DNA of 64,000 nt from an uncultured Chloroflexia bacterium (lineage in GTDB: Bacteria; Chloroflexota; Anaerolineae; Anaerolineales; UBA4823). The position numbers and the translations under genes are program-made. This document shows, in pieces, positions 4,308 through 53,019 of the stretch (position 1 is the first letter of the stretch; the number at the start of each line of letters is the position of its first letter). The notes below the pieces were generated by a model. The model made no database searches. It saw only the letters and a list, made by a program, of their open reading frames with translations, and had not been told where the DNA came from. The DNA lies in assembly GCA_963822175.1 (NCBI GenBank), contig CAWGGJ010000003.1, positions 582,802 to 646,801 on the forward strand, written 5' to 3'.

Positions 4308-6467
4308 CTATTGCATAATGAGCGGCATGAACTTTATTATCCCCGCGAACAGATGCAGGGAGTTATTATGGTAATACAAGGACCACCGAATTTCTGCTAT
4401 CGGGGGGATCGTTACTGGTGAAAAATCGCCTGTCCGAGAGTTATACGACAGGAGGATAAAGTGATCACCAACCTGGGGAGTGTAGCCACCGGTAAAACTG
4501 ATATTGTATGGTCCATTCAAATAAAAATCAGTGGCAGTCATTTGGCTATAATCAGTGGCTGGTATGGTACCTTGAATCGCCAGGTTGGTGATTCCATCAG
4601 CTTCCTGCCTGAAGGTGGTCACCCAGATATTCCCGGTGGTCAGGTTCAGGATTCCGTAATTGTTAAACGTCCCTTCATTGCGAACTACATATGCACCGGA
4701 AGTCTGGATGGTAAATGTTGCCCCAGCCTGGTTGTTGAAGATGGCTGAATTATTCATACTCAAATAGCTGGTTTTAGTCCAGGTGGCAACACCGGCATTA
4801 TTGAATGTACGATCCAAAATGCTGATCTCTGCTGTACCGGTGAAGTTGACCGCACTGGTGGCATTGGTCACACCGCTGCCAGACATCGTCCCACTATCCC
4901 AGTTGATCGTATCAGCAGTCAGGTCACCCGCACCGGTCAATGTCCCACCGGTCATGTTCAGGATCGTTGTGGTGGCGGTGCTGCCGGTGCCCAGGCTTAA
5001 TATGCCGCTGATGATAGTAGTACCATCGGTGAACGCATACGTCCCATCGACGTTGACACTACTCACAATATCGACCGTTCCAGTCCCGCTGAAGGTTACC
5101 TCCCCACTCAGGTTATTCGTCCCACTTAGGCGTAAGCTGGCACCTGATGAGATATCAAATTCACCGCTGATGGTCGAGCTCGCCGTGTTGAGTAACTCCA
5201 GCGTTTCCGCCTCAATATTGACAATGCCGGAGGCAAAATTATTAAACCCTACATAGAATGTGGTATTCCCTGAGCTGCTCTTCGTGATGGTGCCGTAATT
5301 GTTAAACGTCCCTTGAATGCGAACTACATACGATCCGGAAGTCTGGATGGTAAATGTTGCCCCAGCCTGGTTGTTGAAGATGGCTGAATTATTCATACTC
5401 AAATAGCTGGTTTTGGTCCAGGTGGCAACACCGGTATTGTTGAATGTACGATCCAAAAGGCTGATCTCTGCTGTACCGGTGAAGTTGGCAATGGTGCTGG
5501 CGGTGGTTGAGCCACTGCCAGACATCGTCCCACTATCCCAGTTGATCGTATCAGCAGTCAAGTCGCCCGCACCGGTCAATGTCCCACCGGTCATGTTCAG
5601 GATCGTTGTGCTGGCGGTGCTGCCGGTGCCCAGGCTTAATATGCCGCTGATGATATTAGTACTGCCGGTGAACGCATACGTCCCATCGACGTTGACACTA
5701 CTCACAATATCGACCGTTCCAGTCCCGCTGAAGGTTACCTCCCCACTCAGGTTATTCGTCCCACTTAGGCGTAAGCTGGCACCTGATGAGATATCGAATG
5801 CACCGCTGATGGTCGAGCTCGCCGTGTTGAGTAACTCCAGCGTTTCCGCCTCAATGTTGACAATGCCGGAGGCAAAATTATTAAATCCTACATAGAATGT
5901 GGTATTCCCTGAGCTGCTCTTGGTGATGGTGCCGTAATTGTTAAACGTCCCTTGAATGCGAACTACATACGATCCGGATGTCTGGATGGTTAATGTTGCC
6001 CCAGCCTGGTTGTTGAAGATGGCTTCATCATTCATACTCAAGTAGCTGGTTTTGGTCCAGGTGGCAACACCGGCATTGTTGAATGTACGATCCAAAAGGG
6101 TGATCTCTGCTGTACCGGTGAAGTTGGCAATGGTGCTGGCGGTGGTTGAGCCACTGCCAGACATCGTCCCGCTTTCCCAGTTGATCGTGCCGGCAGTCAG
6201 GTCTCCTGCCCCTGTCAATGTCCCATTAGACAGGGACAGGCTTCCCACCTCTGCACTACTGGATACAGTGACCGTGCTACCGATATTAATGATGGCATCA
6301 TCATCGACACCAGGGACATGTCCGCAGCTCCAGTGGGTGAGATCATTCCAGTCACCGCTGACACCTGTCCAGGTGCAGCTGGCAGCCTGGGCGGTGTCGG
6401 TAGAAGAAATAAATAGGAAAATCATCAAAAAAAGTAATATGGATATGAAATGCATTCTGGTTTTCAT
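4308..6467 (-). CDS. Secreted repeat protein (beta-strand-rich, three ~213-aa tandem repeats)
   Basis: 719 aa with signal peptide MKTRMHFISILLFLMIFLFISSTDTAQA. Repeated block TLTGAGDLTA[GD]TINW[ED]SGTMSGSG...TFNN[AT]GVATWTKTSYLSMN...GTFNNYGTITKSSSGNTTFYVGFNNFASGIVNIEAETLELLN. Ends in FMPLIMQ. Family not recognised beyond Gly/Thr/Asn-rich beta-helix-like composition. Confidence 0.85.
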   Translation of the reverse strand: MKTRMHFISILLFLMIFLFISSTDTAQAASCTWTGVSGDWNDLTHWSCGHVPGVDDDAIINIGSTVTVSSSAEVGSLSLSNGTLTGAGDLTAGTINWESGTMSGSGSTTASTIANFTGTAEITLLDRTFNNAGVATWTKTSYLSMNDEAIFNNQAGATLTIQTSGSYVVRIQGTFNNYGTITKSSSGNTTFYVGFNNFASGIVNIEAETLELLNTASSTISGAFDISSGASLRLSGTNNLSGEVTFSGTGTVDIVSSVNVDGTYAFTGSTNIISGILSLGTGSTASTTILNMTGGTLTGAGDLTADTINWDSGTMSGSGSTTASTIANFTGTAEISLLDRTFNNTGVATWTKTSYLSMNNSAIFNNQAGATFTIQTSGSYVVRIQGTFNNYGTITKSSSGNTTFYVGFNNFASGIVNIEAETLELLNTASSTISGEFDISSGASLRLSGTNNLSGEVTFSGTGTVDIVSSVNVDGTYAFTDGTTIISGILSLGTGSTATTTILNMTGGTLTGAGDLTADTINWDSGTMSGSGVTNATSAVNFTGTAEISILDRTFNNAGVATWTKTSYLSMNNSAIFNNQAGATFTIQTSGAYVVRNEGTFNNYGILNLTTGNIWVTTFRQEADGITNLAIQGTIPATDYSQMTATDFYLNGPYNISFTGGYTPQVGDHFILLSYNSRTGDFSPVTIPPIAEIRWSLYYHNNSLHLFAGIIKFMPLIMQ
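4640..6233. repeat. Intragenic tandem repeat, ~639-bp unit, about 2.5 copies
   Basis: The same DNA block recurs with starts near 4783, 5413 and 6052 (see the near-identical shadow ORFs in the track). The protein copies differ at only a few residues. Confidence 0.9.
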
Positions 6468-21234: not shown

Positions 21235-22521
21235 ATGACCGAACAGATCAATGCTTTCCAAATGGCACAGCGCCAGTTTGATGGCGTCGCCAAGCAGCTC
21301 AACCTCGACCCGCAGGTGGCTGAAATCCTTCGCTGGCCAGCCCGCGAGTTTAAATTCACCATCCCGGTGCACATGGACGATGGCTCTTTGCGTGTTTTCA
21401 CCGGCTATCGTGTCCAGCACAACGACGTGCGCGGTCCCAATAAGGGCGGTATTCGCTTCCACCCCGCTGAGACCCTCGATACCGTCCGTGCCCTCGCCAT
21501 GTGGATGACCTGGAAATGCTCCGTTGCCGATATCCCCCTGGGTGGCGGTAAAGGTGGCGTTCCGGTCGATCCAGCCACCCTCTCCGTCTACGAGAAGGAA
21601 AAACTGGTCCGCGGCTGGGTGGACCAGATGTGGCGCAACATCGGTCCCCGCCAGGACGTCCCTGCTCCCGATGTAGGTACTACCCCTCAGATGATGGGCT
21701 GGATGATGGACGAGTATTCCAAGATGGTCGGTCAATATACCCCGGGTGTGATCACCGGCAAGCCCCTCGGTGGTGGTGGCTCTCTTGGCCGCACTGAAGC
21801 CACCGGTTTCGGCGTCATCTACACCGTGCGCGAGGCTATGAAGCACCTCAAGATCGATCCTGCCAAGGCAGTCGTAGCCATGCAGGGCTTTGGCAATGTA
21901 ACCCAGTATGCTGCCATTGGTTTCATTGATATGTTGGGTGGCAAGGTCGCCTGCGTCTCCTGCTGGGACCGCACCGACAAATGCTCCTATACCTTCAGCC
22001 ATCCCAAGGGCGTTGACCCCAGGTTCCTGCAGTCCATCACCGACCAGTATGGCACCATTGATAAATCCAAGGCTCATGAGGCTGGCTACGTGCTTGAAGA
22101 AGGCGATGCCTGGATCACCAAGGAAGCGGATGTCCTAATGCCCGGTGCCCTGGAAGGTCAGGTCACTGGCGAGACCATCAAGAAGATCCACAGCCGTGTC
22201 CGCATTATTGCCGAAGGCGCCAATGGTCCCACCACGCCCGAAGCGGATGCCGTCATCAAGGCCAATAACATCTTCAACATCCCCGATTTTCTGTGCAATG
22301 CAGGTGGCGTCACCTGTTCGTACTTTGAGGGCGTCCAGAACGACATGAACTTCTACTGGACCAAGGAAGAGGTGCTCCAGCGCCTTGATACCAAGATGAC
22401 CCAGGCCTTCAATTCCGTCCTCGAAATGTCCGAGAAGGAAAAGGTCTACATGCGCGATGCGGCTTACATGGTCGCCATCGCCCGTGTGGTCAAAGCCATG
22501 GAATTGCGCGGCTGGATCTAA
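21235..22521 (+). CDS. gdhA: Glutamate dehydrogenase
   Basis: 428 aa with AGGAG RBS. Motifs: GPNKGGIRFHP, ADIPLGGGKGGV, VPAPDVGT, GFGNV. The antisense ORF 21106..22077 is a shadow. Confidence 0.95.
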   Translation: MTEQINAFQMAQRQFDGVAKQLNLDPQVAEILRWPAREFKFTIPVHMDDGSLRVFTGYRVQHNDVRGPNKGGIRFHPAETLDTVRALAMWMTWKCSVADIPLGGGKGGVPVDPATLSVYEKEKLVRGWVDQMWRNIGPRQDVPAPDVGTTPQMMGWMMDEYSKMVGQYTPGVITGKPLGGGGSLGRTEATGFGVIYTVREAMKHLKIDPAKAVVAMQGFGNVTQYAAIGFIDMLGGKVACVSCWDRTDKCSYTFSHPKGVDPRFLQSITDQYGTIDKSKAHEAGYVLEEGDAWITKEADVLMPGALEGQVTGETIKKIHSRVRIIAEGANGPTTPEADAVIKANNIFNIPDFLCNAGGVTCSYFEGVQNDMNFYWTKEEVLQRLDTKMTQAFNSVLEMSEKEKVYMRDAAYMVAIARVVKAMELRGWI

Positions 22522-29339: not shown

Positions 29340-29830
29340 GCCTGGTGAGCCTCGCGGCCACCTGCACAGTCTTTGTGCGGATCCCTTCAGCGAGGAGCGC
29401 ACTGTGCAATTTAGCCTCGCGAAGTGTTTTTCAAGCGAGGCTGGGAGGGGGTTGGTTTCTTATTCCATCCATCTACACCGCCGATGGATGAATCCACCGT
29501 CTACCAAAACCACGAAACCCGCTCAGCGGGTTTTCTTACATTAGCCGATGGATTTTATCCATCGGCACTCCTCCCCTACTTCCGCATTTTGAAATTTAAA
29601 TCCCAAATGGTTTCATCGGGTGTGGGGAGGTTGGGTGAGCTTCGCGGCCACCTGCACGGTCTTTGTCCGGTTCACTTCACCGAGCAGCGTACTGTGCAGA
29701 ATCCCGAGGAAATTGAGGAGACGAAGCCTCGTGAAATGTTTCCCGAGCGAGGTGAGGCAGGGGCTCTTCCTCCCTCTCCAAATGCTGGCTTTACATTTGG
29801 GGAGGGCTGGGCAAGCCTCGCGGTCCATTC
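29340..29830. repeat. Mosaic hairpin-repeat locus A
   Basis: Contains two copies of the GGTGAGCYTCGCGGCCACCTGCAC...ACTGTGCA module (29343-29410, 29633-29700). Hairpins: 29481-29499, GAAACCCGC-TCA-GCGGGTTTTC (29513-29535), GCCGATGGAT-TTT-ATCCATCGGC (29544-29566) and CCAAATG...CATTTGG (29770-29800 region). Confidence 0.85.
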
Positions 29831-30810: not shown

Positions 30811-31006
30811 TTTTTTGGGGGATTATCATCAAGGTTGTTCTTTGCCCGCAGCATCGCGAACGATTTGTGTGAGCGAGGTACGATGAGCGGTTTATGCGAA
30901 GAAGCAATCTTCTCCACAACTTAATGAATTCACATTCTGCATAAACCACGAAACCCGCCCTGCGGATTTTCTATCATTAGCCTGAGGATTATATCCATCA
31001 GCTAGC
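30811..31006. repeat. Mosaic hairpin-repeat locus B
   Basis: Colinear with 33125-33300 and with the reverse complement of 41492-41650: TTTTTGG..ATCATCAAGG...GCATCGCGAACGATTTGTGTGAGCGAGGTACGA.GAGCGGTTT.TGCGA...GCAATCTTCT...TGCATAAACCACGAAACCCGC. Confidence 0.85.
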
Positions 31007-33074: not shown

Positions 33075-33605
33075 AACACTTCCTCTCCAAATGCCGGTTT
33101 TGCATTTGGGCAGGGCTGCTGTCCTTTTTTGAGGTGTCATCGAGGGTGACCTTTACCCGAAGCATCGCGAACGATATGTGTGAGCGATGTACGAGGAGCG
33201 ATTTTTGCGACCAAGCCCCGAGTAATGCGAGGGGGTGGCAATCTTCTTCATAATTATTCGAATCCACCTTTTGCATAAACCACGAAACCCGCAGGGGACA
33301 TAAAAAATATTGTCATTGCGAATGCCTGGCGAACTTCCAGGCATGTGGCAATCTTCTTCATAGTTATCTGAAACCACCGCTGTGGAAATAAACGAATGCC
33401 GCATGACCGCTTTCGACGGTGGATGAATCCACTGTCTGCTTAAACCACAAAACCCGCACAGCGGGTTTTCTAGCACTAGCCGATGGATTTTATCCATCGG
33501 CACAGGGTATTAATCCCCCCTGCGAAGGATGGGTGAGCCTCTCAGCCACCTCCACGATCTTGGTGCGGTTCCCTTCTGCGAGGGAGCTGCCTGCATCCTG
33601 CTCCT
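33075..33605. repeat. Mosaic hairpin-repeat locus C
   Basis: CCAAATGC-CGGTTTT-GCATTTGG (33087-33109). Module colinear with locus B (33125-33300). GCCTGG-CGAACTT-CCAGGC (33323-33341). Three-hairpin block 33415-33501 nearly identical to 29481-29566. GGTGAGCC...CACC module at 33530-33600. Confidence 0.85.
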
Positions 33606-33807: not shown

Positions 33808-36800
33808 TCAACCGGGCAGTGCATTCCTCAAGCCAGCTCTTGGGCGGTAGCGTAACATGTCGCGCTGCAGACCACGCTGACGGGCAGCCTCGACGTCCTC
33901 TTCTGGCAGGTCGGCTGAGGCGGAGGTTACATACTGCCCGACAATTTTCTCCATCCATGGACTGACTTTCCAGATCGGATCATCCAACACCAGCGTGTAG
34001 AGCTCAACGGCTTGGACTGCCCGGCCTTCTCTGGCCAGGATCAAAGCCATGGCTGCCAGAGAATGCTTGAGAGCATGATGTGCGCGGGTTTTCACCGAAA
34101 TCTGCAGGGCTTCAACAAGGGCAACTATTAGCTGACTTCGGCCATGCCCAGTGTAGTAATGGATGTTCGCCAGCACTGCCAGCGCCCAGCCCAGCTCGTC
34201 TTGGTGACCCACCTGGCGATATAGATTAACCGACTCTTGCATGAGGTCATGCGCATCCAGGATTTCGCCCTGCGCCAGGGCACATCCGCCCAAGATCGAA
34301 TTTCGATAAAGCCATCTCTCTTCGTAGACCGTTTTCTAGCGCAAACTGCAATCCCATCTGTGTATAATATTTGACCTGATCATACTTTCCATGTAGCATC
34401 TTACCTAATCCGATAACCATATAAACAAAGGTGGAATTATAGCGATCACCCAGGTCTTGATACAATGGGAGACTTTGTTGCAACAAGCGGAAGGATTCAT
34501 CAAATTGGCCTTGCCAGACCAAAAGCCGGCCCATCCACATCAGCCCATCAGCCATGCTGCGCTTTATCGCCGATCGATTGATTTATCGCCAACGACTCAC
34601 GCATCAGGGATACGCATTTCTCAAGCAAACCAACCCGGCTAAAATTAAAAGCCAGCCAGGTAAGCGCATAAGCCAACCCGCGCTGGTCGTCCATAGCCCT
34701 GCGCATGGCAATACATTCCATCAATGGCTCGGTCGCCTCAGCATAATCCCCCGAATGCTGTAGGTTGATCCCCAGATCCACCAAGGCAGCTGCCAGGTGC
34801 CATTTGTCACCGATCTGCCGATAAAGCTCTACGCTCCTCTGCAGGTGCTCACGTGCCAGTTTGAGGTCAGCAGTAAATATGGCTTCGCCGGCTTCCAGCC
34901 AGATAAAAGCCTGTAAACGACGGACATCCTGGCCTGGCGATTCCAGGCGGCTGGCAAGTTCCACGGCTTCCTCCCACTGCTGGTGAGCAGGTTCAAGCTC
35001 ACCCAGCAATCGACTGAAGCGACTCTGCCAGATGTGCAGATGCGCTTGCAGGAAGCAAGATTGCGGGTTATCGGCACCTGCCAATCCATATACAACAGCC
35101 CTGGCAAGCACTCTGTCCTTCTTTAAAACGGGCACTGAGCTCATAATACAGGCACAACCCCTCCAGCCCATTGGTTAAAGGGTCGATCTCAGCCTGTTGG
35201 CAAGCCCAATCCCAGGCTGCCCGCACATCGTTGATCTGCTTATCCGCCTGTGCCAGCATGGCGATTTGCCCTGGTCCTTTGAACAAACTACTCCATCCAG
35301 TTGCTATCCTGAGGAAATATTCACTATGTGTCTGCCTGGTTGCCCTTTCCAATCCATCCTCAGCAAGGGTCAGCTTTTCCTGGCTGTACTGACGCACAAG
35401 ATCATGCATTTGATATTGGCCTTCAGATGTACTCCCCAATAAACTCTTGCCCACCAGCGCATGCAACACCTTCGGGGTGGCATCTGCCACTTCAAACGCG
35501 GCTTGCGCACTGAAGGCATTTCGGAAAACTGATAATTTCATCAGAACCTGCTTTTCGGGTAGACTGAGCAGGTCCCAGGAATATTCAAAGGTCGCTCGCA
35601 GGCTGCGCTGGCGTGCCGGCAAGTCCGCCCACTCCACCGATAGGAAGTCCAGGCTGCGCTCGATCTGCTCGGCGATCTCCCGTGTCGGATATTCGCCCAC
35701 CCAGCTGGCTGCCAGGATCAGGCTGAGCGGCATGCCCTCCACCACCCGGCAGATTTGGGCAATCCCCTCCAGGTCCTCGGGGAGATAACCCGGTTTCACC
35801 CGCCGAGCTGCCTCCAGGAACAGTGCCACTGCACTGTAGTCCAACACCTGTTTTACATCTATGGGTGGAATATTCATCCCTTTAATTGGGTACACCTGCT
35901 CCCCGCTCAATTCCAGCCTCACCCGGCTTGTCACCAGCAGCTTGCTTCCCGATGAAGCCACCAGTATCTCTGCCACCAGTCCTGCACTCTCCGTCACTGT
36001 CTCAAAACTGTCAAGCACTAGCAGCAACTTCTTGTTGCGTAGGTAGTCCAGTAGCTGCTGTTGGTGCTCCCCTTTTTCTCGGAAGTTGAAGCCCAATCTC
36101 TCCGCCAGGGCTGAGAGCAGCGAGCTACCCGTCCCAAGGGCAGATAGCGGAACGAAATACACCCCATCCGCGAAGTGATAGCGTTGCCGATGGGCGATCT
36201 CGAGTGCCAGGCGTGTCTTACCACTGCCACCCGTTCCCAGGATGCAGATCAGCCTGTGCCCGGGGTCGACCAGCCAGCCCCATAGCTCGGTCAGCTCTGT
36301 CTTCCGCCCGATGAAGGGCGTCAGGCTGGCGGGTAAATAGCCTGGTTCGGTCCCGGCTTGCTCGTTGCGCAGGCGCTGGTAAAGCAATCTGCTCTCCTGG
36401 CCTGGCTCGGCTCCCAGCTGTATGGCCAGTGTCTGGCGGAATGATCCATATTGCTCCAGTGCCTCCTCCCGCCGGCCCAAGAGAGCCAGCAAGCGTATAA
36501 TATGAGCATTGCCGGCCTCCCCCAGGTCGTCCAGCACCACCATCTTTTGCGCATACCTGAGGGCGTGGTCCAGCTCTCCCTGCTGTTCGAATGCCACCAC
36601 CAGGTTATCCAGCACCTCCATCACATCCAGGCGCAGCTGCTCGCGCAAGCACGGTAGCCCATTCCTCAAATCCCAGGCTCTTCGGCAGGTAAAACCCATC
36701 CAGGAAATCCCCAGCATACAGCTGGGCTGCCTCCTGGTAACGCTTCAAGCATTCTTCACATACTTTTTTTGGGGGATGGGCATGCGTTCTGCATGCATCT

Positions 36801-37174
36801 ACCAATCCTGAGAACTCAGCCACGTCCGTTATAAGATCACATTGTGGATTGAGCTGGATCTCCTGGGTGGTGACCAGCAGGCAGGGTTTGCGGGTCTGGT
36901 TGGTAGTTTCAACGGATAGGGTGCCTGCTTGCTCCCGATCGCCAAGGATACCTCGCAATTGGTACAGCGTCTGGCTCAAGCTGCCCCGGGCATGAGTTTC
37001 GTCAGACTCAGGCCAGAGCAAGCCAATCAGTTTTTCACGGGGGTGGGGATGATCTCTCTCAATTGCCAGGTATGCCAGCAAGGCACGCGCTTTATCGGAC
37101 TTGAGGTTGACCACAGAGTGTCCATCCATGCTCAATCTGTACAAGCCTAACAGCTTCAAGCTCAGGTGTGTCAT
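33808..37174 (-). pseudogene. SARP/AfsR-type regulator (winged-helix + BTAD + NB-ARC ATPase + TPR), split by 4 frameshifts
   Basis: Fragments are 36605..37174, 35068..36717, 34548..35171, 34247..34555 and 33808..34293. The first carries OmpR-type wHTH and the BTAD start (ARALLAYLAIE...LIGLLWPE...YAGDFLDGF). The second carries the rest of BTAD plus the Walker A motif ILGTGGSGKTRLA and LLVLDSFE. The last three are TPR repeats. Sequence continuity across each junction was checked by hand. Confidence 0.85.
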
Positions 37175-41148: not shown

Positions 41149-41176
41149 TTGTGGATTAGAACATTTGTGCTATAAT
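41149..41176 (+). promoter_or_regulatory. Promoter-like head of element D (extended -10)
   Basis: TTGTGG (41149-41154), 16-nt spacer ending in TGC, then perfect TATAAT (41171-41176). Identical to 50924-50951. Confidence 0.5.
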
Positions 41177-41746
41177 AAGGGTGCGTGAAACACATCCGAA
41201 ACCGCGAGCGTTCTTTGCGAGGGGTGAGGTGCGATCTTTGCACCCCCTGTCGCGAACGCTCTTTGTGAGCGAGAAACCGCGAGTGCAGGGTTCTTCCCGA
41301 AACCTTGAGCGTTCTTTGCAAGAGGCGTTCTTTGTCCGCAGTGTCGCGACCGTTTTTTGGGAGCGATACGAGAGGCATTTTTTGGGAGCGAAGCAGTCGC
41401 GAGGGCTTTATACGAGCGATCCAGAAACCAATGCCAAAATCTCATTTCTCCACCCTCTCGTTAATGGATCATCCACCTGCTGTTCACCAGCAACCCGCAA
41501 AGCGGGTTTCGTGGCTTTTGCAGCCGGTGGATTCATCTTCCCGAGGAGAAGATTACAACGTCGCAAAAACCGCTCCTCGTACCTCGCTCTCACAAATCGT
41601 TCGCGATGCTTCGGGAAAAATGCACCCTTGATGACACCAAAAATAATCTCCAAACCCGCAAAGCGGGTTTCGTGGCTTTTGCAGCCGGTGGATTCATCCA
41701 CCGGCACAGGATTATCTATGATAATGATATCTTTCACCAGCGGAAG

Positions 41747-41966
41747 CTGGCAGCGTTTATCTGTGGTTAAAGGTTTTACCTTTTTTAATCAATGTTTTTC
41801 ATCTGTGTGCATCTGTATTTATCTGTGGTTCAAGGTTTTATCTTTATAAATAAGAGGTTTCCATCCGTGTGCATCTGCGTTATCTGCGGTTAAAGGTTTT
41901 ATCTTTATAAATAAAAGTTTTTCATCCGTGTGCATCTGCGTTTATCTGCGGTTAAAGGTTTTATGG
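41747..41966 (+). repeat. Tandem units with phased ATCTGYGK 8-mers (element D)
   Basis: Four units (one partial) of the form GTTTTTCATCTGTGTGCATCTGTATTTATCTGTGGTTCAAGGTTTTATC plus an AT-rich spacer. Ten 8-mers are mostly spaced 10 nt apart. Confidence 0.9.
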
Positions 41967-41996
41967 CACGAATTGAATCCATTTGTATCCCTAAAA

Positions 41997-42400
41997 CTAT
42001 TCAAATGTGGTGGTCCAATTAAACTGGACACAAAAATGGCTTATCTTAGGGGGATGTCTGCTCCACTCTTCGAATTCGACCGGTGTCAGATATCCCAATG
42101 ATGAATGGATGCGTGTTGTATTACGCACATCCCTCAAGAAACGACCAATCTGGCGATACGTATTTGCATAGTTTTGATAATCTGACCAATCCACCTCCTC
42201 TTCTTTGATCGTGCGTATCAAGCGCTCGTCATACCCAGTTTCCCAAGTCTCACTTTTGGTAGACATATTGATCTGCACATGCCGGGCGTGTAAAGCATTC
42301 GCTTACTCAAGTGTCGCTTAATGGATACCCTGGGTACTGACGTGGATCATCCTCTCATAAAATAAGTGGTAAGCGTAATAACGAATCGTCGTTTTCTAAA
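41997..42400 (-). mobile_element. IS3-family transposase (rve/integrase core) 3' remnant, pseudogene
   Basis: Track ORF 41997..42278 encodes ...GYDERLIRTIKEEEVDWSDYQNYANTYRQIGRFLRDVRNTTRIHSSLGYLTPVEFEEW, a typical IS3 OrfB C-terminus. Upstream, the same frame reads LFYERMIHVSTQGIH-stop-ATLE-stop-ANALHARHVQINMS. There are two in-frame stops and no N-terminal half. Confidence 0.8.
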
Positions 42401-44420
42401 TTAATCCTTGATTAATGCCTCACTATATATGATAATATTACAAGCATATTCAGGGGAATATAGAAATGTGTAGTTTGGTTTTTCTTGAATTGTTGGGGTT
42501 GACTAGCCTAAATAAATTGGGACTGCAATGCGCCACCAATCTCGCCTTATACATCACTCTAGTCAGTTATTTTCTCTTTTTCTACGAGTAGATATGAGTT
42601 TTTATCCACCAGCATTAGATAAGGTTTGAGATTTTCTAGAGCGTATCAAAAGGGAGGTCGAAAATGTCTAAAAGTAAGCTGATCTTTCAGGGGGTTATTT
42701 TGCTCATTGCTGTTCTCATCTCCCCTATTCCTATTATTTCCGCAAGTCAACCCAGCCTTGTTGATCAACCCGGGGTGAATGGAAATGGGAATCCCGCATC
42801 CCCTCGACCAACCCTTTTCACTTTTACATCCAAAGCGGATAGCTATGTTGATCAACAGAATCCCACCACAAATTACGGCAAAGCTTACAACATAAGCGTA
42901 GCCAGCTTTCCCACAAAAAATGCATATCTGAAGTTCAACGTCACCGGTTTTTCTGGTGTCATTAAGCAAGCCATATTGCAGGTTTATGCAACCAATAAAT
43001 CGAATGCCATCATTTCAGTACGTGGGGTTGCAAACAACGACTGGGATGAATATTCGATTACATATTCCAACGCGCCTTCCCTTTCACGTATCATTGCAGG
43101 CTCGTCAAAGAAAATCACAAATCCAGGGTGGGTTTCCATTGATATCACCGCACTTGTAAGGGATACCGGTGTAGTTAGTATTGGCTTGACTTGTACCAAT
43201 GAAGTAATGACGAATCTCATGAGCCGGGAAGCGGGCTTGAATCAGCCAAAACTGGTTGTTTATGTCTATCCTTCTGGCACATCGACCCCCACAGCAACCT
43301 CCACCCCTACGAAAACGTTAACACCCACACCTACAAATACACCGACACCCACGGATACACCTACTGCAACAGCCACTCCTACAGACACTACCACTCCCAC
43401 TGTCACCTACACCCCGACTCCCACCGATACTTTTACTCCAACCCCCACAAGCACATATTCCCCAACACCCACCGACACATATACCCCGACCCCTACCGCT
43501 ACAGAAACCCCTACACCAACCGACACTAATACTCCCACCCCCACCAACACAACCGAACCTACACCTGACCCGATCATAGATCACTGCGGCACAATTTCTG
43601 CGGATGAGACCTGGCAGGCTGGTGACGTTCACCGGATAACCTGCACTGTCTCGGTAAACCAGGGGGTCACCCTGACCTTATCCCCAGGCGCGATTGTGAA
43701 GTTCATGAGCGAAACGGGTTTATTTGTGGATGGTAACATTGTTGCGAATGGGACGACGGAAGACCAAATTCACTTCACCAGCTATAAGGATGACAGTGTG
43801 GGTGGGGACAGCAACGAAGACGGGAACACCAGCAGTCCGGCTCCCGGTGATTGGGCTGAAATTTGGTTATATGGCACGGGTAATCTCAATCTCGATCATG
43901 CTATCGTCCGCTACGGAGGCGGTAGTCTTAGCTGGGAACACGGCACGATCATGGCTTACCTGACCAGTTCTCCCAGTGATGGTGTTACTGCCTCCATCAG
44001 TAACAGTGTCATTGAGCATAATACTGATGATGGGGTTTATCTTCGCGACGAGGACGCAACTACCCTTTCCAACTTATCGATTAACAGCTCCGTTATCCGT
44101 AACAACGGTCGTAATGGTGTTAGCACACAAGGCGTTGGGAGTGTTTTACTCGCTAATAACGTCCTCTCCAATAATGGGGCTACATATATAGGTTCCGCGG
44201 CTTTAATCTATGCTCAGACAGCCATCGTAAGTGGCAATACCTTTACCAATAACCCTTCTGGATTGTCTCTGGGAGCTGACAGTATCACACTGACAGATAA
44301 TCTATTTATCGATCAGACCTATGAGCACGCATTTATTAATTCAACGGATGACCTGATCTTCTATGGGAACAGTACCCATGGACAGCCACGCTTGTTCAAG
44401 TTGTATGGAGTCCATCTCAG

Positions 44421-46063
44421 ATGATGTCACCCTCGATTCTGCCATCCAGGTGTATGAGCTCGGATTGAGTGTCAATCCCGGAGCAACCCTGACCCTCCTT
44501 GAAGGCGTGCTTGTGAAATTATCAGAAAATTACAGCTCCAATCTCACAATTTTCGGTACCTTAAACATCCAGGGGACAGAGTCCAATCCTGTCGTGATCA
44601 CGTCATTGAAAGACGATACATACGGCGGAGACACGAATAATGACGGAGCCTCCACCTCACCGGCTCCCGGTGACTGGGGTGAAATTTGGCTATATGGCAC
44701 AAGTAATCTCAATTTCGCTCATGCTATCATTCGCTATGGAGGCGGTAATCTTAGCTGGGAACACGGCACGATCATGGCTTACCTGACCAGTTCTCCCAGT
44801 GATGGTGTTTCGGTTTCCATCAGTAACAGTGTCATTGAGCATAATACTGATGATGGGGTTTATCTTCGCGATGAGGATCCTACCACCCTTTCCAACTTAT
44901 CGATTACCAACTCCACGATCCGTAACAACGGTCGTAATGGTGTTGGCGCACAAGGCGTTGGGAGTGTTTTACTCGCTTATAACGTCCTGTCTGAAAATGG
45001 ATTAGTTTATCCAGTTTCAGCGGCTGCAATCTATGCTCAGACAGCCATTGTAAGTGGTAATACCTTTTCCAATAACCCTTCTGGATTGTCTCTGGGAGCT
45101 GATAGTATCACATTGACAGATAATCTATTTATCGATCAATCCTATGAGCATGCATTGATTAATTCCTATAATAACCTGATCTTCTATGGGAACAGTACTT
45201 CTGGCCAGCCACGCTTGTTCAAGTTGTATGGAGTCATCTCAGGTGATGTCACCCTCGATTCTGCCATCCAGGTGTATGAGCTCGGATTGAGTGTCAATCC
45301 CGGAGCAACCCTGACCCTCCTTGAAGGCGTGCTTGTGAAGTTATCGGAAAATTACAGCTCCAATCTCACAATTTTCGGTACCTTAAACATCCAGGGGACA
45401 GAGTCCAATCCTGTCGTGATCACGTCATTGAAAGACGATACATACGGCGGAGACACAAATAATGACGGAGCCTCCACCTCACCGGCTCCCGGTGACTGGG
45501 GTGAAATTTGGTTATATGGCACGAGTAATCTCAATTTCGCTCATGCTATCATTCGCTATGGAGGCGGTAATCTTGGTTGGGAACATGGTGCGATCATGGC
45601 TTACCTAACTGGATTCTCCAGTGATGGTGTTTCGGTTTCCATAGTAACAGTGTCATTGAGCATAATACTGATGATGGGGTTTATCTTCGCGATGAGGATC
45701 GCTACCACCCTTTCCAATTTATCGATTACCAACTCCACGATCCGTAACAACGGTCGTAATGGTGTTGGCGCACAAGGCGTTGGGAATGTTTTACTCGCTT
45801 ATAACGTCCTGTCTGAAAATGGATTAGTTTATCCGGTTTCAGCGGCTGCAATCTATGCTCAGACAGCCATCGTAAGTGGTAATACCTTTTCCAATAACCC
45901 TTCTGGATTGTCTCTGGGAGCTGATAGTATCACATTGACAGATAATCTATTTATCGATCAATCCTATGAGCATGCATATGATTAATTCCTATAATAACCT
46001 GATCTTCTATGGGAACAGTACTTCTGGCCAGCCACGCTTGTTCAAGTTGTATGGAGTCATCTC
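44421..46063 (+). repeat. Two near-identical ~822-bp modules (modules 2 and 3 of the RHS N-terminal region)
   Basis: The landmark TTGTATGGAG recurs at 44401, 45223 and 46046. Modules 2 and 3 differ by only a handful of substitutions and indels. Module 1 (~43600-44420) and module 4 (46064-~46640) are more diverged. Confidence 0.9.
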
Positions 46064-47260
46064 AGGTGATGTCACCCTCGATTTGCCATCCAGGTGTATG
46101 AGCTCGGATTGAGTGTCAATCCCGGAGCAACCCTGACCCTCCTTGAAGGCGTGGTTGTGAAGTTACCGGACAGGCGAGCTCCAATCTCACAATTTATGGT
46201 AACCTTAAACATCCAGGGGACAGAATTTAAATCCTGTCGTGATCACGTCTTTAAAAGACGATACATACGGCGGAGACACAAATAATGACGGAGCCTCCAC
46301 CTCACCGGCTCCCGGTGACTGGGGTGAAATTTGGTTATATGGCACGGGTAATCTCAATCTTGATCATGCCATTGTGCGCTACGGAGGCGGTTATCTTGGT
46401 TGGGAACATGGCACGATCACTGCCTATATAACCTTATACCCAAGTGATGGTGCTTCGGTTTCCATAAGTAACAGTGTCATTGAGCATAATTTATATGATG
46501 GAGTATTTCTGCACGATGAGGACGCGACTACCCTTTCCAACTTATCGATTACCAGCTCCACGATCCGCAACAACAATTGGAATGGAGTTACCACCGAAGG
46601 CATAGGGATCGGATTTGCCATAATAAGAGGAAGCTCAATATATAATAGCGCAGGATATGGCGTTTACAATGGAAATATTAGTAATGGTTTCGACGCCCGC
46701 TATAACTACTGGGGCTCGGACAATGGTCCTGCTCCTTATGGTCAAGGGGATGCCATCAACACGTACCAGGAGTGGGATCCCATTTGCGAATGTGTCGTCA
46801 CTAAACCAGCAGTGATATTCACCCCTCCGCTGGATTCTTCCGGTCAGATTGTCGGTCCACCACCCGCCCAGACTTACGGCACCCCCTCCACCACCACGAG
46901 CATTTCAGTGGCTGACCCCGTCAACGTGGTTTTCGGCAACTACACCTACCAGTATACCGACCTGGCTTTCCCGACACTGGGTGAGGGCTTTACCTTCCTG
47001 CGTACCTACAACTCCGCCAGCACTGATTTTGGTCCGCTAGGCTTAGGCTGGACGCATAGTTATGACATCTTCGCCACCCAACCCACCACCAACACGGTCG
47101 TTATCCTGCGCGAGGATGGACGCAAGGACATGTACACCGATGCGGGTGGAGGCAATTACCTGTCACCCCCCGGCGTCTACGACACATTACGCTTCGTCAC
47201 CGACCACTTCGTGCTCACCCGCAAAGACCAGGCGGTCTATTCTTTAACCCGGATGGCACA

Positions 47261-50200
47261 TTGGCTAGCCTGGCCGATCATACTGGTAACACAACGGCAT
47301 TTTCTTATTCAGGTGGCAACCTGGTCTCACTCACCGAGCCCGCCGGTCGACAGGTCACTTTCACTTATTCAGGGAACCTGCTTACACAGATCAGCGATCC
47401 TCTTGGACGCACAGTCAGTTTTAGTTACACCGATAGCTTGTTGACCAGCGTGACCGATGTCAATGGTCATAGCACCACCTATGCCCACGATGGTTCTGGT
47501 AAGCTGGAGTCGATCACCGATGCCAACGGTCATACATTTGTCCACAATTTCTACGATACCGAAGGGCGCGTGGTTGAGCAGCGCGATGCGCTGAATAACC
47601 TGACCACATTCTCTTATGATCCCACTACACGCATCAACTCGGTCACCAACCCGCTTAATTTCACCACCCTTTACCAGTATGACAGTGCCTATCGCCTGGT
47701 CTCTGAGACTGACCCTTTAGGTTATACCCAATCGTATGCCTTTGACGCCAACAACAACCAGATCAGCGCCACCGATAAGCGCGGTAATACCACCACTTTC
47801 AGCTATGATACCCGCGGTAATGTCCTCACCATCACCGCTCCTCTGGGAGTTGTCCGAAGCTTCAACTATGATGATCATAACAACCTGCTCACCGAGACCG
47901 ATCCGCTCAGTCATTCAACCAGCTATGCTTATGATGGAGCAGACAACCTAACCAGCATCACCGATGCTTTGAATAACACCTCCACATTTACCTATAACTC
48001 TTTGGGGCAGGTGCTCGCCTCCACTGGTCCACGCGGGTACACAGCCTCCTTCGGCTATGATGCCTATGGTCACCAGGATAGCCTCACCGATTATTATGGA
48101 AATGAAACTACCTTCATCTTTGATATCGTCGGACGCAAGCTGAGCCAGACCGACGCCCTGGGGCATACCACCACTTACTCGTATGATAATGCCAACCATT
48201 TGTTGACGGTTGATGAGCCAATGGGTCGCTCAACCAGCTACACCTATGACCTGGTCGGGAACCGCCTGTCTGTTACCGACCCAATGGGTGGCAACACTGC
48301 CTCCACCTACGATGCCAAGGACCGCATGGTAACGGTCACTGACCCCTTAGGACATGTCACCACCTATGGCTATGATGCGCTCAACAACCAGGTCTCCATT
48401 ACGGATGCATTGGGGCACGTCACCACCTTCGAGTATGATGCCCTTAACCGCAATATCTCCACGATTGATCCGATGGGGCATACCACAAGTTCCCAGTATG
48501 ACCCGGATGGCAACCGCACCCAGTTAATTGATGCTAATGGTAACAGCACCTATTATGTTTATGATCAGCTCAGTCGCCTGACCTCTGTTACCGACGCTGC
48601 TGGTGGGACTGTGAGCTACACTTATGACATGGTCGGCAATCGCCTCTCCATGATGGATGCCAACTCTCACACCACCAGCTACACCTACGATGCTCTGAAC
48701 CGGTTGGCAACCTTCACAGATCCCTTGAGCTTTGTCACCAGTTATACCTATGACCAGGCGGGCAACCGCATCACCTGGAATAAGCCTGATAATTCCACCG
48801 TCCATTACACCTACGACCGGCTTGACCGGCTGGAAACAGTGACTGCCACGGGGATCAACATCAGCTACACCTACGATGAGCTGGGGAACCGCCTTACTTT
48901 GGTCAATTCAACCGGCACCACCAGCTACACCTATGACGATCTGAACCGTTTGGTCGAGGTCGTCAACCTGCAAGGCAATCTGGATTATGCCTACGATCTC
49001 AACAATAACCGCACCTCGTTGACGTACCCGGATAGCAAGACTGTCATCTATACCTATGACCCGGCAAATCGTTTGATCACCGTAACGGACTGGGCTTCTC
49101 AAATCACGACCTATAGCTATGATTACACCAACCTGCTGACCGGGATCGCCTACCCCAACGATGTTGTTGCCAGCTATGCATATGACGAAGCCAGCCGTCT
49201 GATAAGCATTGGGTACACCGGGCCTGCTCCCTTGGAATCCTTCAGCTATACCCTGGATGCGGTCGGGAACCGGCTGAGCATGGCTGACGCAGATGGGAAC
49301 ACCAGCTATACCTACGATGTTCTATACCGTCTCACCGGTGTCAGTTATCCAGTTGGATCCCCTGCCAGTGTCAATTATGCCTACGATCCAATGGGCAACC
49401 GGCTGAGCATGACTCAGGATGGTGCTACCACAGCATATACTTACGATGCAGTGGATCGGCTGTTGTCCACTGATACCAGTGGAATGGTCACCAGCTTCAC
49501 CTGGGATAATAATGGCAATATGCTCACCAAGGGGGGCCAGTCCTTCACTTGGGATGCCCTTAATCGCATGGTCGCCTGGACAGATGGCACGAACACATCC
49601 AGCTATACCTACAACGGTGATGGTGTGCGCCTAGGTCGGACAGTGAATGGTTCAACCACAGCATATCTGCAGGATCTGGCTGCTGGTTTGCCCGTGGTAC
49701 TGAGAGAGACCACTTCAGGCGTGAACACAGATAATGTTTATGGAAATGACTTGATCACCTCCATCGATAGCAGTGAAATTTCCTCCTTTTACCATACCGA
49801 TGGACTGGGCAGCACGCGCCTGCTGACCGATAATAGCAGTGCTGTCACCGACCGCTACAGCTACGATGCCTTTGGTTCACCTCGCACCCATGCCGGCTCG
49901 AGCACCCAGCCCTTCACCTTCACCGGCGAGCAGGTCGACCCCGAGGCAGGTCTGGTGTTCTTGAGAGCAAGATATTATGATCCAAGAACTGGCAGATTTA
50001 TTAGCTCTGATCCATTTTTTGGAGACATTATTCTCTCCCAATATATAAATCGCTACACATATACACATAATCGACCAATAATTACCACAGATCCTAGTGG
50101 TAAGTTTCCTCTCATCGTTTTAATTGGTGGTGGAATAGTTGTATATAAGGTGGGTAATTATGTTGTAAACTACGTTGATTCTTATATTAAAGCAATTTCA

Positions 50201-50602: not shown

Positions 50603-50923
50603 TGTCTATTCAACAAGATAAATCCTATAATCGACTCGAATTATTATTAACTAACCTTTTTGGTAAATAAAGGCAGGTTTAGTGCCGTTACTACTTAGAA
50701 CTATTCGCAGTCTTTTATCCTTTACTTATTCCTCTCCTATTTTCGTAGAAAATGGTGGAGCTTGCAGTGTCGGCATGCTTTCACTAGCAGGTGGAACTTT
50801 TACCAAATAAATTACTATTATAAACTGATCGTATGTCAGCCAATTCATTGTTTGTATCATGGCTTATCGCTCAAAGATCACCAACGCCCTTTCATTAGAA
50901 ACCTTAAATTAATCATAACACTC

Positions 50924-50951
50924 TTGTGGATTAGAACATTTGTGCTATAAT
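50924..50951 (+). promoter_or_regulatory. Promoter-like head of element E (extended -10)
   Basis: TTGTGG (50924-50929), 16-nt spacer ending in TGC, then TATAAT (50946-50951). The block 50923-50960 is identical to 41148-41185. Confidence 0.5.
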
Positions 50952-51412
50952 AAGGGTGCGCTCTTTGCACCTAAAACCGCGAGCTTCCTTTGCGAGGGGT
51001 GAGGTGCGATCTTTGCACCCCCTGTCGCGAACGCTCTTTGTGAGTGAGAAACCGCGAGTGCAGGGTTCTTCCCGAAACCTTGAGCGTACTTTACGAGAGG
51101 CGTTCTTTGCGAGTGGTGATGTGCGCTCTTTGCACCCCCTGTCGCGAACGCTCTTTGTGAGCGAGAAACCGCGAGTGCAGGGTTCTTCCCGAAACCTTGG
51201 GCGTCCTTTGCGAGAGGCGTTTATACAGTGTCTTCATGGATTCACTGCTTTACCCGCTGTCGCGAAGGCTTTATACGAGCGATCCAGAAACCAATGCCAA
51301 AATCTCATTTTTCCACCCTCTCGCTATTGGATCACCCACCTGCTCTTCACCAGCAACCCGCAAAGCGGGTTTCGTGGCATTTTCAGCCGGTGGATGAATC
51401 CACCGGCTGAAG

Positions 51413-51684
51413 CTGGCAGCGTATATCTGCGGTTAAAGGTTTTATCTGTTTACTTAACGGGTTTTCATCTGTGTATATCTGTGTTTATCTGTGGTTAATG
51501 GGTTTTATCTTTTTACATAGCGGGTTTTCATCTGCGTTTATCTGCGGTTAAAGGTTTTATCTATATATATAATAGGTTTCCATCCGTGTTCATCTGCGTA
51601 TATCTGCGGTTAAAGGTTTTATCTTTTTTTATAACGGGTTTTCATCTGTGTATATCTGTGTTTATCTGTGGTCAAAGATTTTAT
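51413..51684 (+). repeat. Tandem units with phased ATCTGYGK 8-mers (element E), 200 bp upstream of dnaN
   Basis: Five units, for example GGGTTTTCATCTGTGTATATCTGTGTTTATCTGTGGTTAATGGGTTTTATC plus an AT-rich spacer. Twelve 8-mers in total. Confidence 0.9.
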
Positions 51685-51885
51685 GGCACGAATTGAATCC
51701 ATTTGTTTCCTTAATTCAATTCAAATATTCCCTTCCCTTCCACCTTCCTCCCATGAGCCTGCTCAACTTTTCACCCTCATCCCGCACAGTTCTCCCCGAT
51801 TACTGGAAAATTTCCGCCTATCGTTGTATACTCAGAGCACGCTTGAGCGCTCTCTACGCGCTCCCAACCGAGGAGAAGTTCTGAT

Positions 51886-53019
51886 ATGAGAGTAACCGTC
51901 CTGCAAGAGAATCTGGCTCACGGCCTGAGCATCGTCTCGCGTGCCGTATCCCCCCGCAGCACCCTGCCCGTGCTGGCCAACGTCCTCGTCGCCACCGATG
52001 AAGGTCGCTTGCGCCTATCCGCCACCAACCTTGAGTTGGGCATCACCTGTTGGATCGGTGCCAAGATCATCGAGGAAGGCTCCACCACCGTCCCCGCCCG
52101 CACCTTCAACGACCTTGTTGCCACCCTCCCCGCTGACCAAATTGAGATGACTCTCAACGTCCGCAACCAGAAGCTGAACATCCGTTCCGCCGCATCCAAC
52201 ACCGATATCAACTGCATCGATTCCCAGGAATTCCCTCCCATGCCCACGCCGGACCTATCGGATGCCATCCCCATCAACGTGACTGAGCTGAAGGAGATGA
52301 TCCAGCAGGTGGCGTTTGCCGCCTCCACCGATGAAGCCCGCCCGGTGCTTACCGGCGTTTTGCTCTCTGCCCAGGGTAACCAGATCACCATGCAGGCGGC
52401 TGACGGTTTCCGCCTCTCCATCCGTAAGGCTGAGCTCTCCTCCGCCCTTCCCCGTCCGATCAAGGCCATCATCCCCGCCCGCGCCCTGGCCGAGCTGGCT
52501 CGCGTCGCTGGCGATGGCGACACCACCGTCACCATGGTCCTGCCTCCCAATCGCGGCCAGGTCATCTTCCACATGAAGGATGTCGAGCTGGTCTCCCAGC
52601 TCATTGAAGGCTCCTACCCCGACCTGGAGCAGGTCATCCCCCGCTCCCATCAGACCCGCACCGCCATCTCCACCCCGGCAATCCTCAAAGCCTGCAAGCA
52701 GGCAGAGATCTTTGCCCGTGAGGGCACCCACATCGCCCGCATCCAGATCACCCCCGGTGTCGATAACCAGCCGGGTACAGTTGAGATCTCCGGCCAATCC
52801 GAGGAGACCGGCTTCAACCAGACCGTGATCGATGCCAACATCGAGGGGAGCGGTTTACTCATTGCATTCAACGTGCGCTTCCTGCGCGAAGTCCTCGACG
52901 TGATCAAGACCCCCAACGTCATCCTTGAGACCAATATTGAAACCACACCCGGCGTATTCAAACCCGCCGGTGAGGATAACTTCCTGCACGTCATCATGCC
53001 CATGCACCTGGGTGGTTAA
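51886..53019 (+). CDS. dnaN: DNA polymerase III beta sliding clamp
   Basis: 377 aa with GAGGAG RBS. N-terminus MRVTVLQENLAHGLSIVSRAVSPRSTLPVLANVLV...LRLSATNLELGI. C-terminus ...FLHVIMPMHL. Confidence 0.95.
   Translation: MRVTVLQENLAHGLSIVSRAVSPRSTLPVLANVLVATDEGRLRLSATNLELGITCWIGAKIIEEGSTTVPARTFNDLVATLPADQIEMTLNVRNQKLNIRSAASNTDINCIDSQEFPPMPTPDLSDAIPINVTELKEMIQQVAFAASTDEARPVLTGVLLSAQGNQITMQAADGFRLSIRKAELSSALPRPIKAIIPARALAELARVAGDGDTTVTMVLPPNRGQVIFHMKDVELVSQLIEGSYPDLEQVIPRSHQTRTAISTPAILKACKQAEIFAREGTHIARIQITPGVDNQPGTVEISGQSEETGFNQTVIDANIEGSGLLIAFNVRFLREVLDVIKTPNVILETNIETTPGVFKPAGEDNFLHVIMPMHLGG

Follow-up and report, generated by a model that had tools for sequence, protein, structure and literature searches.

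The pho boxes of PhoB, the decameric tor boxes of TorR, the heptad repeats of SARP-type regulators and the TTGC-N6-TTGC site of lambda CII are direct-repeat operators, and SARPs bind their direct repeats on one face of the helix. Repeat arrays also occur as plasmid and phage iterons of 17-22 bp and in parC-type centromeres, represented by R1 parC and the Vibrio ori2 12-mers. Other short repeats are intergenic: repetitive extragenic palindromes (REP), bacterial interspersed mosaic elements (BIME), REP doublets forming hairpins (REPIN), uptake signal sequences (USS) and DNA uptake sequences (DUS) are species-specific, hairpin-capable sequences found as inverted doublets downstream of genes, and mycobacteriophage stoperators lie in short intergenic gaps. 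One report describes stoperators as numerous asymmetric repressor sites across the phage genome that stop transcription elongation (PMC9283540). The class II termination signal of T7 RNA polymerase, ATCTGTT, is orientation-specific, hairpin-independent and in need of a U-run (bioRxiv 10.1101/2021.01.11.426313). Here we describe two arrays of phased ATCTGYGK 8-mers, E and D, in a 64,000-nucleotide stretch of DNA from an uncultured Chloroflexia bacterium (contig CAWGGJ010000003.1; hereafter the window), array E lying directly upstream of dnaN, the gene for the beta clamp of DNA polymerase III. Tentatively, and at somewhat less than an even chance, we read the arrays as amplified, phased recognition sites for a putative DNA-binding protein, whose effect near the dnaN promoter would be architectural or regulatory.

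A scan allowing one mismatch found 12 sites in array E, besides one pseudo-site at 51444 (ATCTGTTT, which contains an exact ATCTGTT), and 10 sites in array D (Table 1), reproducing the counts of an earlier sequence-only reading that had reported phased arrays at both loci. The exact 8-mer occurs 33 times in the window as against 8.7 +/- 3.0 times in dinucleotide shuffles (none of 100 shuffles reached 33), and 18 of the 33 occurrences fall inside the two arrays, all 18 on the + strand. Tandem Repeats Finder returned a period of 62 bp with 3.4 copies for D and periods of 52, 62 and 115 bp for E. Aligned in register, the units read ATCYGTGT-nn, ATCTGYGT-nn and ATCTGYGG-TT, then AAAGGTTTTATCT, about 10 nt of A/T and GGTTTTC; each site cluster of E is trailed by TTAAAGGTTTTATCT before its A/T spacer and GGTTTTC. 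The first unit of each array holds a single site and unit E3 holds two. To our knowledge, the 8-mer matches no published operator box.

The spacing from site to site is 10 and 10 bp (9 bp once) and then 42-43 bp, and the phase modulo 10.5 drifts by less than 3.5 bp across the 190-240 bp of an array. The sites of D and E thus all lie on one face of the helix, as had been claimed from the letters of the window. The periodicity of AA/TT dinucleotides peaks at 10.2-10.5 bp; about 10% of shuffles match this peak, which is therefore not significant alone. The last unit of E stops about 180 bp short of the dnaN ATG at 51886, in agreement with the sequence-only reading, and Pfam confirms the identity of dnaN; measured from the proximal dnaN promoter-like site, the array occupies the region 130-410 bp upstream.

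The earlier view that the arrays are neither coding sequence nor clustered regularly interspaced short palindromic repeats (CRISPR) also stands. The open reading frames (ORFs) that run through the repeats, 41181-41849 and 50956-51498, have no Pfam match, and a 10-bp period is incompatible with a reading frame. As to CRISPR, the A/T-rich "spacers" resemble one another, the 10-bp period runs within the repeats, and cas genes were not found. We also considered MraZ boxes, which have the form GTG[G/T] with a 10-bp period, and set them aside since half of the sites carry GCG.

Conservation is distributed unevenly over the nine units. Fixed core positions depart from the consensus in 1 of 154 letters and the AAAGGTTTTATCT block in 6 of 121, as against 7 of 43 in the 2-nt linkers (Fisher p = 1e-4 relative to the fixed core) and 16 of 70 in the A/T spacer (p = 3e-8). 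Variation in the core is limited to one pyrimidine-degenerate position per site, where 10 of 22 letters are non-consensus. A fixed core with variable linkers and spacer fits a putative protein-binding array, and this pattern, together with conservation of the same module in phages, agrees with the protein-binding type of architecture seen in the sequence-only reading. The units tend to be all-TGTG or all-TGCG, and the triple of E2 is identical to that of E5; the arrays therefore appear to be undergoing homogenisation between units.

The three-site module is not confined to the window. We scanned IMG/VR with the pattern ATCTGYGK-NN-ATCTGYGK-NN-ATCTGYGG, for which a rough estimate puts the expected number of random matches far below one, and recovered 62 stretches. 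Six of these are plain 10-bp microsatellites; the rest comprise 77 distinct sites on about 56 contigs (loci L021-L082). Position 8 is T in 73 of the 77 at site 1 and in 76 at site 2, although the pattern did not demand it, and T-T-A-A after site 3 and pyrimidine-rich linkers, which the pattern did not impose either, are again present. Judged by these features, the grammar of the viral sites is that of the window, while their flanks are unrelated and range in GC content from 42 to 68%. Scrambled-motif controls gave 8 and 2 matches against the 62 real ones; they are imperfect controls, having kept the GYGK suffix and being decamer direct repeats themselves.

In phages, the commonest arrangement sets three sites on one strand and then three on the opposite strand, and many apparently single sites have a degenerate inverted partner. 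About 79% of the IMG/VR sites lie between predicted genes according to crude gene calls. The element separates structural genes both in an HK97-type siphovirus and in a Mu-like phage whose portal protein resembles prophage portals of metagenome-assembled genomes (MAGs) of Verrucomicrobiae/Limisphaerales. Among six related phages, both arms are nearly invariant, with changes only at degenerate and linker positions, whereas the loop, the flanks and synonymous sites diverge. The orientation of sites relative to phage genes showed a bias in the crude gene calls, but orientation is ill-defined given the degenerate inverted partners and we do not rely on it. Separately, further IMG/VR loci (L108-L117) carry other decamer repeats with a TGYGG core, three to five copies of TCATGCGGTT or multiple copies of GGCTATGCGG, beside gene starts; those of L108 lie just downstream of a gene for a PriCT-2/AAA_25 primase-helicase and resemble phage origin iterons.

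In PLSDB, BLAST located the module on plasmids from four Nostocales, two Skermanella, Bacteroides finegoldii and Ca. Thiodictyon (loci L101-L107); cultured carriers include Anabaena cylindrica PCC 7122, Skermanella mucosa and B. finegoldii. Copies in Skermanella, Bacteroides and Thiodictyon form inverted pairs. Three Nostocales plasmids each carry a single module that ends about 10 bp upstream of a TTGACA or TTGATA -35 element, inside a conserved block of about 95 bp whose neighbouring genes differ between the plasmids. Carriers belong to at least five phyla (Verrucomicrobiota-type Mu-like phages, Cyanobacteriota, Bacteroidota, Alpha- and Gammaproteobacteria, Chloroflexota). The module behaves as an element of mobile DNA that is constrained and sequence-specific. 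BLAST with the whole array gave no match in GenBank phages or PLSDB plasmids, and BLAST of the triple module against cultured phages gave chance-level matches only. A scan of viral contigs for the window-specific flank GGTTMAWGGKTTT met only coding or chance matches, an over-specific 20-21-mer of the unit found single chance matches and no arrays in GTDB genomes and Joint Genome Institute (JGI) metagenomes, and the motif had no match in the searchable literature.

We hypothesize that the array arose by tandem amplification of a composite unit of about 62 bp with a "triple-decamer" core of about 30 bp, ATCYGYGT-nn-ATCTGYGT-nn-ATCTGYGG-TTAA. Each decamer would be one recognition site of a sequence-specific protein that binds double-stranded DNA, an inference drawn from the 8-bp core, the free 2-bp linker, the spacing of exactly one turn and the non-complementary linkers of the arms. 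In the inverted pairs inspected by eye, without counting, the linker dinucleotides are not complementary between the arms, which points to recognition of the sites rather than to selection for a perfect RNA stem. The protein would bind head-to-tail with one protomer per turn, in the manner of winged-helix proteins of the OmpR/PhoB/SARP type, of lambda CII or of Xis/Cox-type proteins. With sites 10 bp apart in a module and modules 42 bp (four turns) apart, 10-12 sites would be presented on one side, and an occupied array would form a phased, DNA-bending nucleoprotein patch. Besides the phasing and the contrast between core and spacer, the grammar shared in unrelated flanks, the conservation of phage arms, the lack of an RNA-structure signal and the intervening terminator-like hairpin all argue for binding. 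The Nostocales module, about 10 bp from a -35 element, holds a position typical of activator or repressor sites.

Array E occupies the spacer that separates a terminator-like REP hairpin from the dnaN core promoter. If it has an effect, this would most likely be architectural or regulatory, and not replication initiation or segregation: the array could activate or silence dnaN from upstream, serve as a roadblock or insulator that stops transcription arriving from the 29-kb island described below, or titrate the binder. A SARP-type protein is a speculative candidate for the binder: a large SARP-type regulator (winged helix, BTAD and NTPase; WP_202683271.1) is encoded 0.9 kb from a Skermanella copy, and a fragmented gene of the same architecture (Trans_reg_C, BTAD, NB-ARC and TPR) lies 4.6 kb from array D. 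These are two co-occurrences and do not amount to evidence. A bolder proposal, which we consider quite unlikely, is that the triple-decamer is a horizontally spreading, undescribed cis-element with its own putative binding protein, amplified here into two arrays of 10-12 sites; the arrays could then be a sink or decoy for a phage or plasmid protein, or a roadblock shielding dnaN from the island.

DnaN homologues assign the window to the Anaerolineales (Chloroflexota), with "Chloroflexi bacterium RBG_13_50_21" and Anaerolineales MAGs as relatives. The relatives compared have DnaN proteins 89-93% identical and contigs that include some of 0.43-1.4 Mb. Their gene order is aminotransferase, glutamate dehydrogenase (gdh), a gap, dnaN, a PPDK_N protein, deoxynucleoside kinase and M3 peptidase, and dnaA is never beside dnaN. 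The gap measures 0.4-2 kb and varies in content (small membrane proteins, a PIN toxin-antitoxin pair, other repeats); the stretch from the upstream promoter-like element P_up to the inverted repeat before dnaN, which here holds array E, the REP-like hairpin and the 117-bp modules, differs in each relative. Whether arrays adjoin dnaN in other genomes was a check proposed with the sequence-only reading. None was found in the gdh-dnaN gap of seven relatives sharing the gdh-dnaN-PPDK synteny, one of them from the same 90% DnaN cluster, and about 185 kb of the relatives' sequence held no phased ATCTGYGK pair or triple. The array looks like a strain-specific tandem amplification.

Several observations weigh against the protein-binding array. 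Any function of the array is dispensable, because every relative examined does without it. When the ORFs of 62 viral loci were clustered all-vs-all in search of a binder, none of the families was common to most motif-bearing phage loci or exceeded 7 loci. Duplication of a 62-bp unit yields phasing automatically, and by our estimate chance alone would bring about 30% of unit lengths to within about 1.5 bp of a multiple of 10.5. Homogenisation mimics constraint. Viral contigs contained no tandem direct arrays of the module. The phage copies are mostly inverted pairs placed between co-directional structural genes, and these pairs could fold into hairpins of about 28 bp, which suits a role at the RNA level or of REP type no less than DNA binding.

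The main rival, which we consider unlikely, takes the array for a selfish or neutral minisatellite without host function, grown by slippage and unequal crossing-over and seeded by one arm of a horizontally spreading palindromic element, similar to a REPIN or a miniature inverted-repeat transposable element (MITE). Absence from all relatives examined speaks for it, and so does the setting, a fast-evolving intergenic region rich in repeats where the array is embedded among REP-like hairpins and 117-bp modules. Further points in its favour are the differences in unit number and type between D and E with signs of homogenisation and indels of whole decamers, and the place of D beside an IS3 remnant in a 29-kb island with RHS and STAND-type genes. 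The inverted doublets with decayed partners on phages and plasmids of several phyla would suit a mobile element, as would one Skermanella copy with matching changes on both arms. Nevertheless, the flanks show no consistent target-site duplication and no associated transposase or RAYT; related phages carry the element at the same position, with no insertion polymorphism seen; and different genomes have only the arms in common, not the loops, unlike copies of one transposing sequence. The strong contrast between core and spacer would itself require constraint or strongly biased conversion. In an explanation at the level of transcription or RNA, the decamers would act in the strand undergoing transcription, with roles in pausing, termination or processing, or in a long dnaN leader from P_up, and in phages the hairpin would be the functional form. 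The phage copies occupy gaps between cistrons, where the preceding stop codon often lies 0-30 nt and the following start codon 7-30 nt away, and their inverted pairs could make stems of the length given above; six of the seven bases of the T7 class II core recur in the T-type 8-mer (all seven in the pseudo-site), and a conserved P_up lies upstream in the same orientation. We nonetheless hold this explanation improbable: the sites of the window are all direct and so form no hairpin, a terminator-like hairpin precedes the array, arm linkers do not covary, the Nostocales module is upstream of the -35, and a single-subunit RNA polymerase was not seen in the window or in the examined phage loci. 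Fold z-scores of +0.34 and -0.28 on the two strands, with a single sub-threshold chance match in Rfam, led us to reject a structured RNA.

The sequence-only reading had itself proposed origin iterons, of the chromosome or of an integrated replicon, or a centromere-like partition site, on the strength of phased direct repeats with A/T-rich spacers adjoining dnaN; that decamer iterons exist is suggested by the three TCATGCGGTT copies beside a PriCT-2/AAA primase-helicase gene in one phage group. The results do not support this, and we regard it as the least credible of the explanations. The GC skew keeps its negative sign across dnaN in the window and in six relatives (over about 9 kb on each side), and the cumulative skew of the window falls monotonically without a turning point. 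DnaA boxes do not cluster, with two (at most one mismatch) in 50603-51885 and none to two in the same gap of five relatives. Together with the missing array in syntenic relatives, these results speak against a chromosomal origin. Pfam scans of the window's ORFs found no DnaA, bearing out the earlier remark that no dnaA lies upstream of dnaN there, and no Rep, ParA, ParB, ParR, primase or helicase. An iteron-type plasmid or phage origin is likewise disfavoured, the window having no Rep initiator gene, and so is a parC/parS-type centromere, as the window has no gene for ParA, ParM or a centromere-binding protein; copy D is moreover a by-product of segmental duplication. Array E could instead titrate DnaA or regulate dnaN, either like datA or by dnaN autoregulation, with its decamers as weak boxes of one orientation in the register TGTGKWTAW. 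The 8-mer had been described as a 5/9 match to the DnaA box, which holds only in the register used for that comparison; in the shifted register, two units (41762 and 51490) have a third site that, with its flank (TGTGGTTAA), agrees with the box complement TGTGGATAA in 8 of 9 letters, and TGTGGATTA in P_up likewise reaches 8 of 9 at 41150 and 50925. The array also adjoins dnaN, and E. coli oriC has weak, closely spaced DnaA sites in the same orientation. Even so, a DnaA role seems very improbable. The mismatch of TGTGGTTAA is the T at box position 4, and we know of no described variant (TTAT, TTGT, TTTT, TGAT, TCAT) in which that T varies; the match drops to only 5-7 of 9 in C-type units (TGCGG, TGCGT) and in sites 1 and 2 of every module; the relatives lack the array; and the same module between phage structural genes would make no sense for DnaA. 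Even pooled, the DnaA-related and origin or centromere explanations remain improbable.

The phased array belongs to a larger duplicated cassette. The sequence-only reading was right that the array is duplicated, but the duplication extends further than it had stated, over about 0.8 kb; besides the array, it takes in the promoter-like element, the 117-bp module, REP-like hairpins and the inverted repeat's left arm. Because this whole cassette was copied, with similarity ending at the IS3 remnant, copy D is a segmental duplicate of the dnaN upstream cassette and not an independent second locus with a function of its own. P_up (CTTGTGGAWWTAGAACATTTGTGCTATAAT), a strong promoter-like element that recurs in cassette D at 41149-41176, is a candidate source of a leader or small RNA. 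Counterparts with spacers of 16-17 nt occur 0.33-0.95 kb upstream of dnaN in several Anaerolineales, among them loci L019 (9525-9553) and L015 (6531-6560), and its -35 element overlaps the TGTGGATTA match to the DnaA box. The array may not be transcribed from P_up, because the terminator-like hairpin AACCCGCAAAGCGGGTTT intervenes; the copy of the REP-like hairpin in D also has a terminator-like score.

Table 1. Coordinates of the arrays, the dnaN upstream region and associated features in the window.
Feature	Position	Strand	Remarks
Array E, five units	51419..51684	+	Sites at 51425-51432 (1), 51467-51494 (3), 51530-51547 (2), 51582-51609 (3), 51644-51671 (3)
Array D, four units	41757..41964	+	Sites at 41759-41766 (1), 41801-41828 (3), 41863-41889 (3), 41924-41951 (3)
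dnaN, DNA polymerase III beta clamp	51886..53019	+	Pfam: three of three beta-clamp domains
Duplicated cassette, copy E	50924..51726	+	Spans P_up through the conserved inverted repeat; array E inside
Duplicated cassette, copy D	41149..42006	+	Likeness to copy E stops at 42006, beside the IS3 remnant
IS3-type transposase, C-terminal remnant (rve_3)	41997..42278	-	Stop codon 33 nt from array D; limit of D/E similarity
P_up, promoter-like, TTGTGG-16 nt-TATAAT	50924..50951	+	TGC before the -10; inferred from consensus; kept in L019 and L015
117-bp module, two tandem copies	50988..51221	+	One D copy at 41199-41334; related sequences at 30826-30905 and 33137-33216
REP-like double hairpin, AACCCGCAAAGCGGGTT then CAGCCGGTGGATGAATCCACCGG	51355..51407	+	Immediately upstream of array E; copies at 41492-41544 and 41652-41705; inverted copies at 29.4-33.5 kb
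Inverted repeat, GAATTGAAT-N15-ATTCAATTC	51690..51722	.	Between array E and the dnaN promoter; also in L019, L020 and L005
Proximal dnaN promoter-like site, TGGAAA-17 nt-TATACT	51804..51832	+	Surrounding ACTGGAWAATTTACGCCTCTCGTTGTATACTCA kept in 9/9 aligned relatives
Broken AfsR/SARP-type (STAND-type) regulator	33808..37174	-	Trans_reg_C (weak match), BTAD, NB-ARC and TPR over at least four overlapping ORFs

Other elements of the dnaN upstream region recur beyond the window. The 117-bp module, downstream of P_up, carries motifs of the GCGAACGCTCTTTGTGAGCGAG type, and similar motifs occur in the gdh-dnaN gap of locus L007. The inverted repeat downstream of array E may be an operator; its counterparts (L019, 9873-9906; L005, about 130-165) lie 160-200 bp upstream of the dnaN start. 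The Shine-Dalgarno sequence of dnaN is conserved in the relatives, as is the surrounding of the proximal promoter-like site. A GC-rich hairpin resembling GAGCGCTCTCTACGCGCTC occupies the 5' leader of dnaN at 51838-51872 and is also found in L004, L005 and L007; it is absent in L019, L015, L002 and L003. The dispersed REP-like element has two or three hairpins, AAACCCGC-nnn-GCGGGTTT with flanking GCCGRTGGAT-nn-ATCCAYCGGC palindromes. Besides the copies in Table 1, it occurs at 29468-29570, 30904-31004, 33238-33292 and 33403-33503, in both orientations and mostly directly 3' of genes.

In the window, gdh (21235-22521) and dnaN are separated by about 29 kb of extra DNA (22522-51885). This island encodes hydrolases, LVIVD-repeat proteins, the fragmented AfsR/SARP-type regulator, a subtilase, the IS3 remnant, CBM96/beta-helix repeat proteins and a toxin-type protein with RHS/DUF6531. 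The regulator gene is either a pseudogene or broken by frameshift errors of the assembly. Four tandem repeats of about 823 bp (68-100% identical; 43801-46568) run across the CBM96/beta-helix ORFs 42664-44424, 44363-45985 and 46239-47444, which points to a large gene for a repetitive surface protein that frameshifts may have broken. Elsewhere in the window, three tandem 639-bp repeats (86-100% identical; 4654-6231) lie within ORF 4308-6467 on the - strand, which has no Pfam match, and ARAGORN called a 96-nt tRNA-Pro(GGG) at 2214-2309, within a region of 27-bp tandem repeats (2193-2383), probably a false positive.

For annotation, the locus is a caution that phased repeats beside dnaN do not suffice to call an origin. 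In this lineage, dnaN is not beside dnaA, and insertions and repeats concentrate in the gap upstream of it. Of more use is the motif, whose grammar of about 30 bp recurs in dozens of uncultivated phages that are unrelated to one another and in plasmids from several phyla. Should one protein family read the module, mobile DNA would have a new, widely shared signal for its regulation or maintenance.

Among described systems, the plasmid and phage iterons and parC-type centromeres have in common with the window the phased direct-repeat array near A/T-rich DNA, but here the sites measure 8+2 bp, there is no adjacent rep or par gene, relatives do not conserve the array, and neither skew nor DnaA boxes give a signal. 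Stoperators resemble the phage copies of the module in being multi-copy and intergenic; they are single sites of one phage cluster, whereas the triple decamer often forms inverted pairs and occurs in phages of unrelated hosts. The likeness to REP elements and uptake sequences lies in the inverted doublets in gaps, in singletons that resemble decayed doublets, and in the USS core of H. influenzae, AAGTGCGGT, which has TGCGGT like site 3. Inverted doublets characterise the phage and plasmid copies only; the window's copies are all direct, the module spans several phyla and its arms are not palindromic. The T7 class II signal is close to the T-type 8-mer, but it needs a single-subunit phage RNA polymerase, of which the window yielded none, and C-type sites deviate from it further. 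Operators of winged-helix proteins and CII consist, like the arrays, of short asymmetric sites set head-to-tail every 10-11 bp on one face, often two to four of them, and the Nostocales module abuts a -35 element as such operators do. The window differs from them in having 10-12 sites, more than 120 bp from the nearest promoter (array E ends about 130 bp before the dnaN promoter-like site, without overlap or abutment of a -35), and its AfsR-like gene is fragmented. The period of its head-to-tail repeats, 10-11 bp, is that of an OmpR/SARP-type operator.

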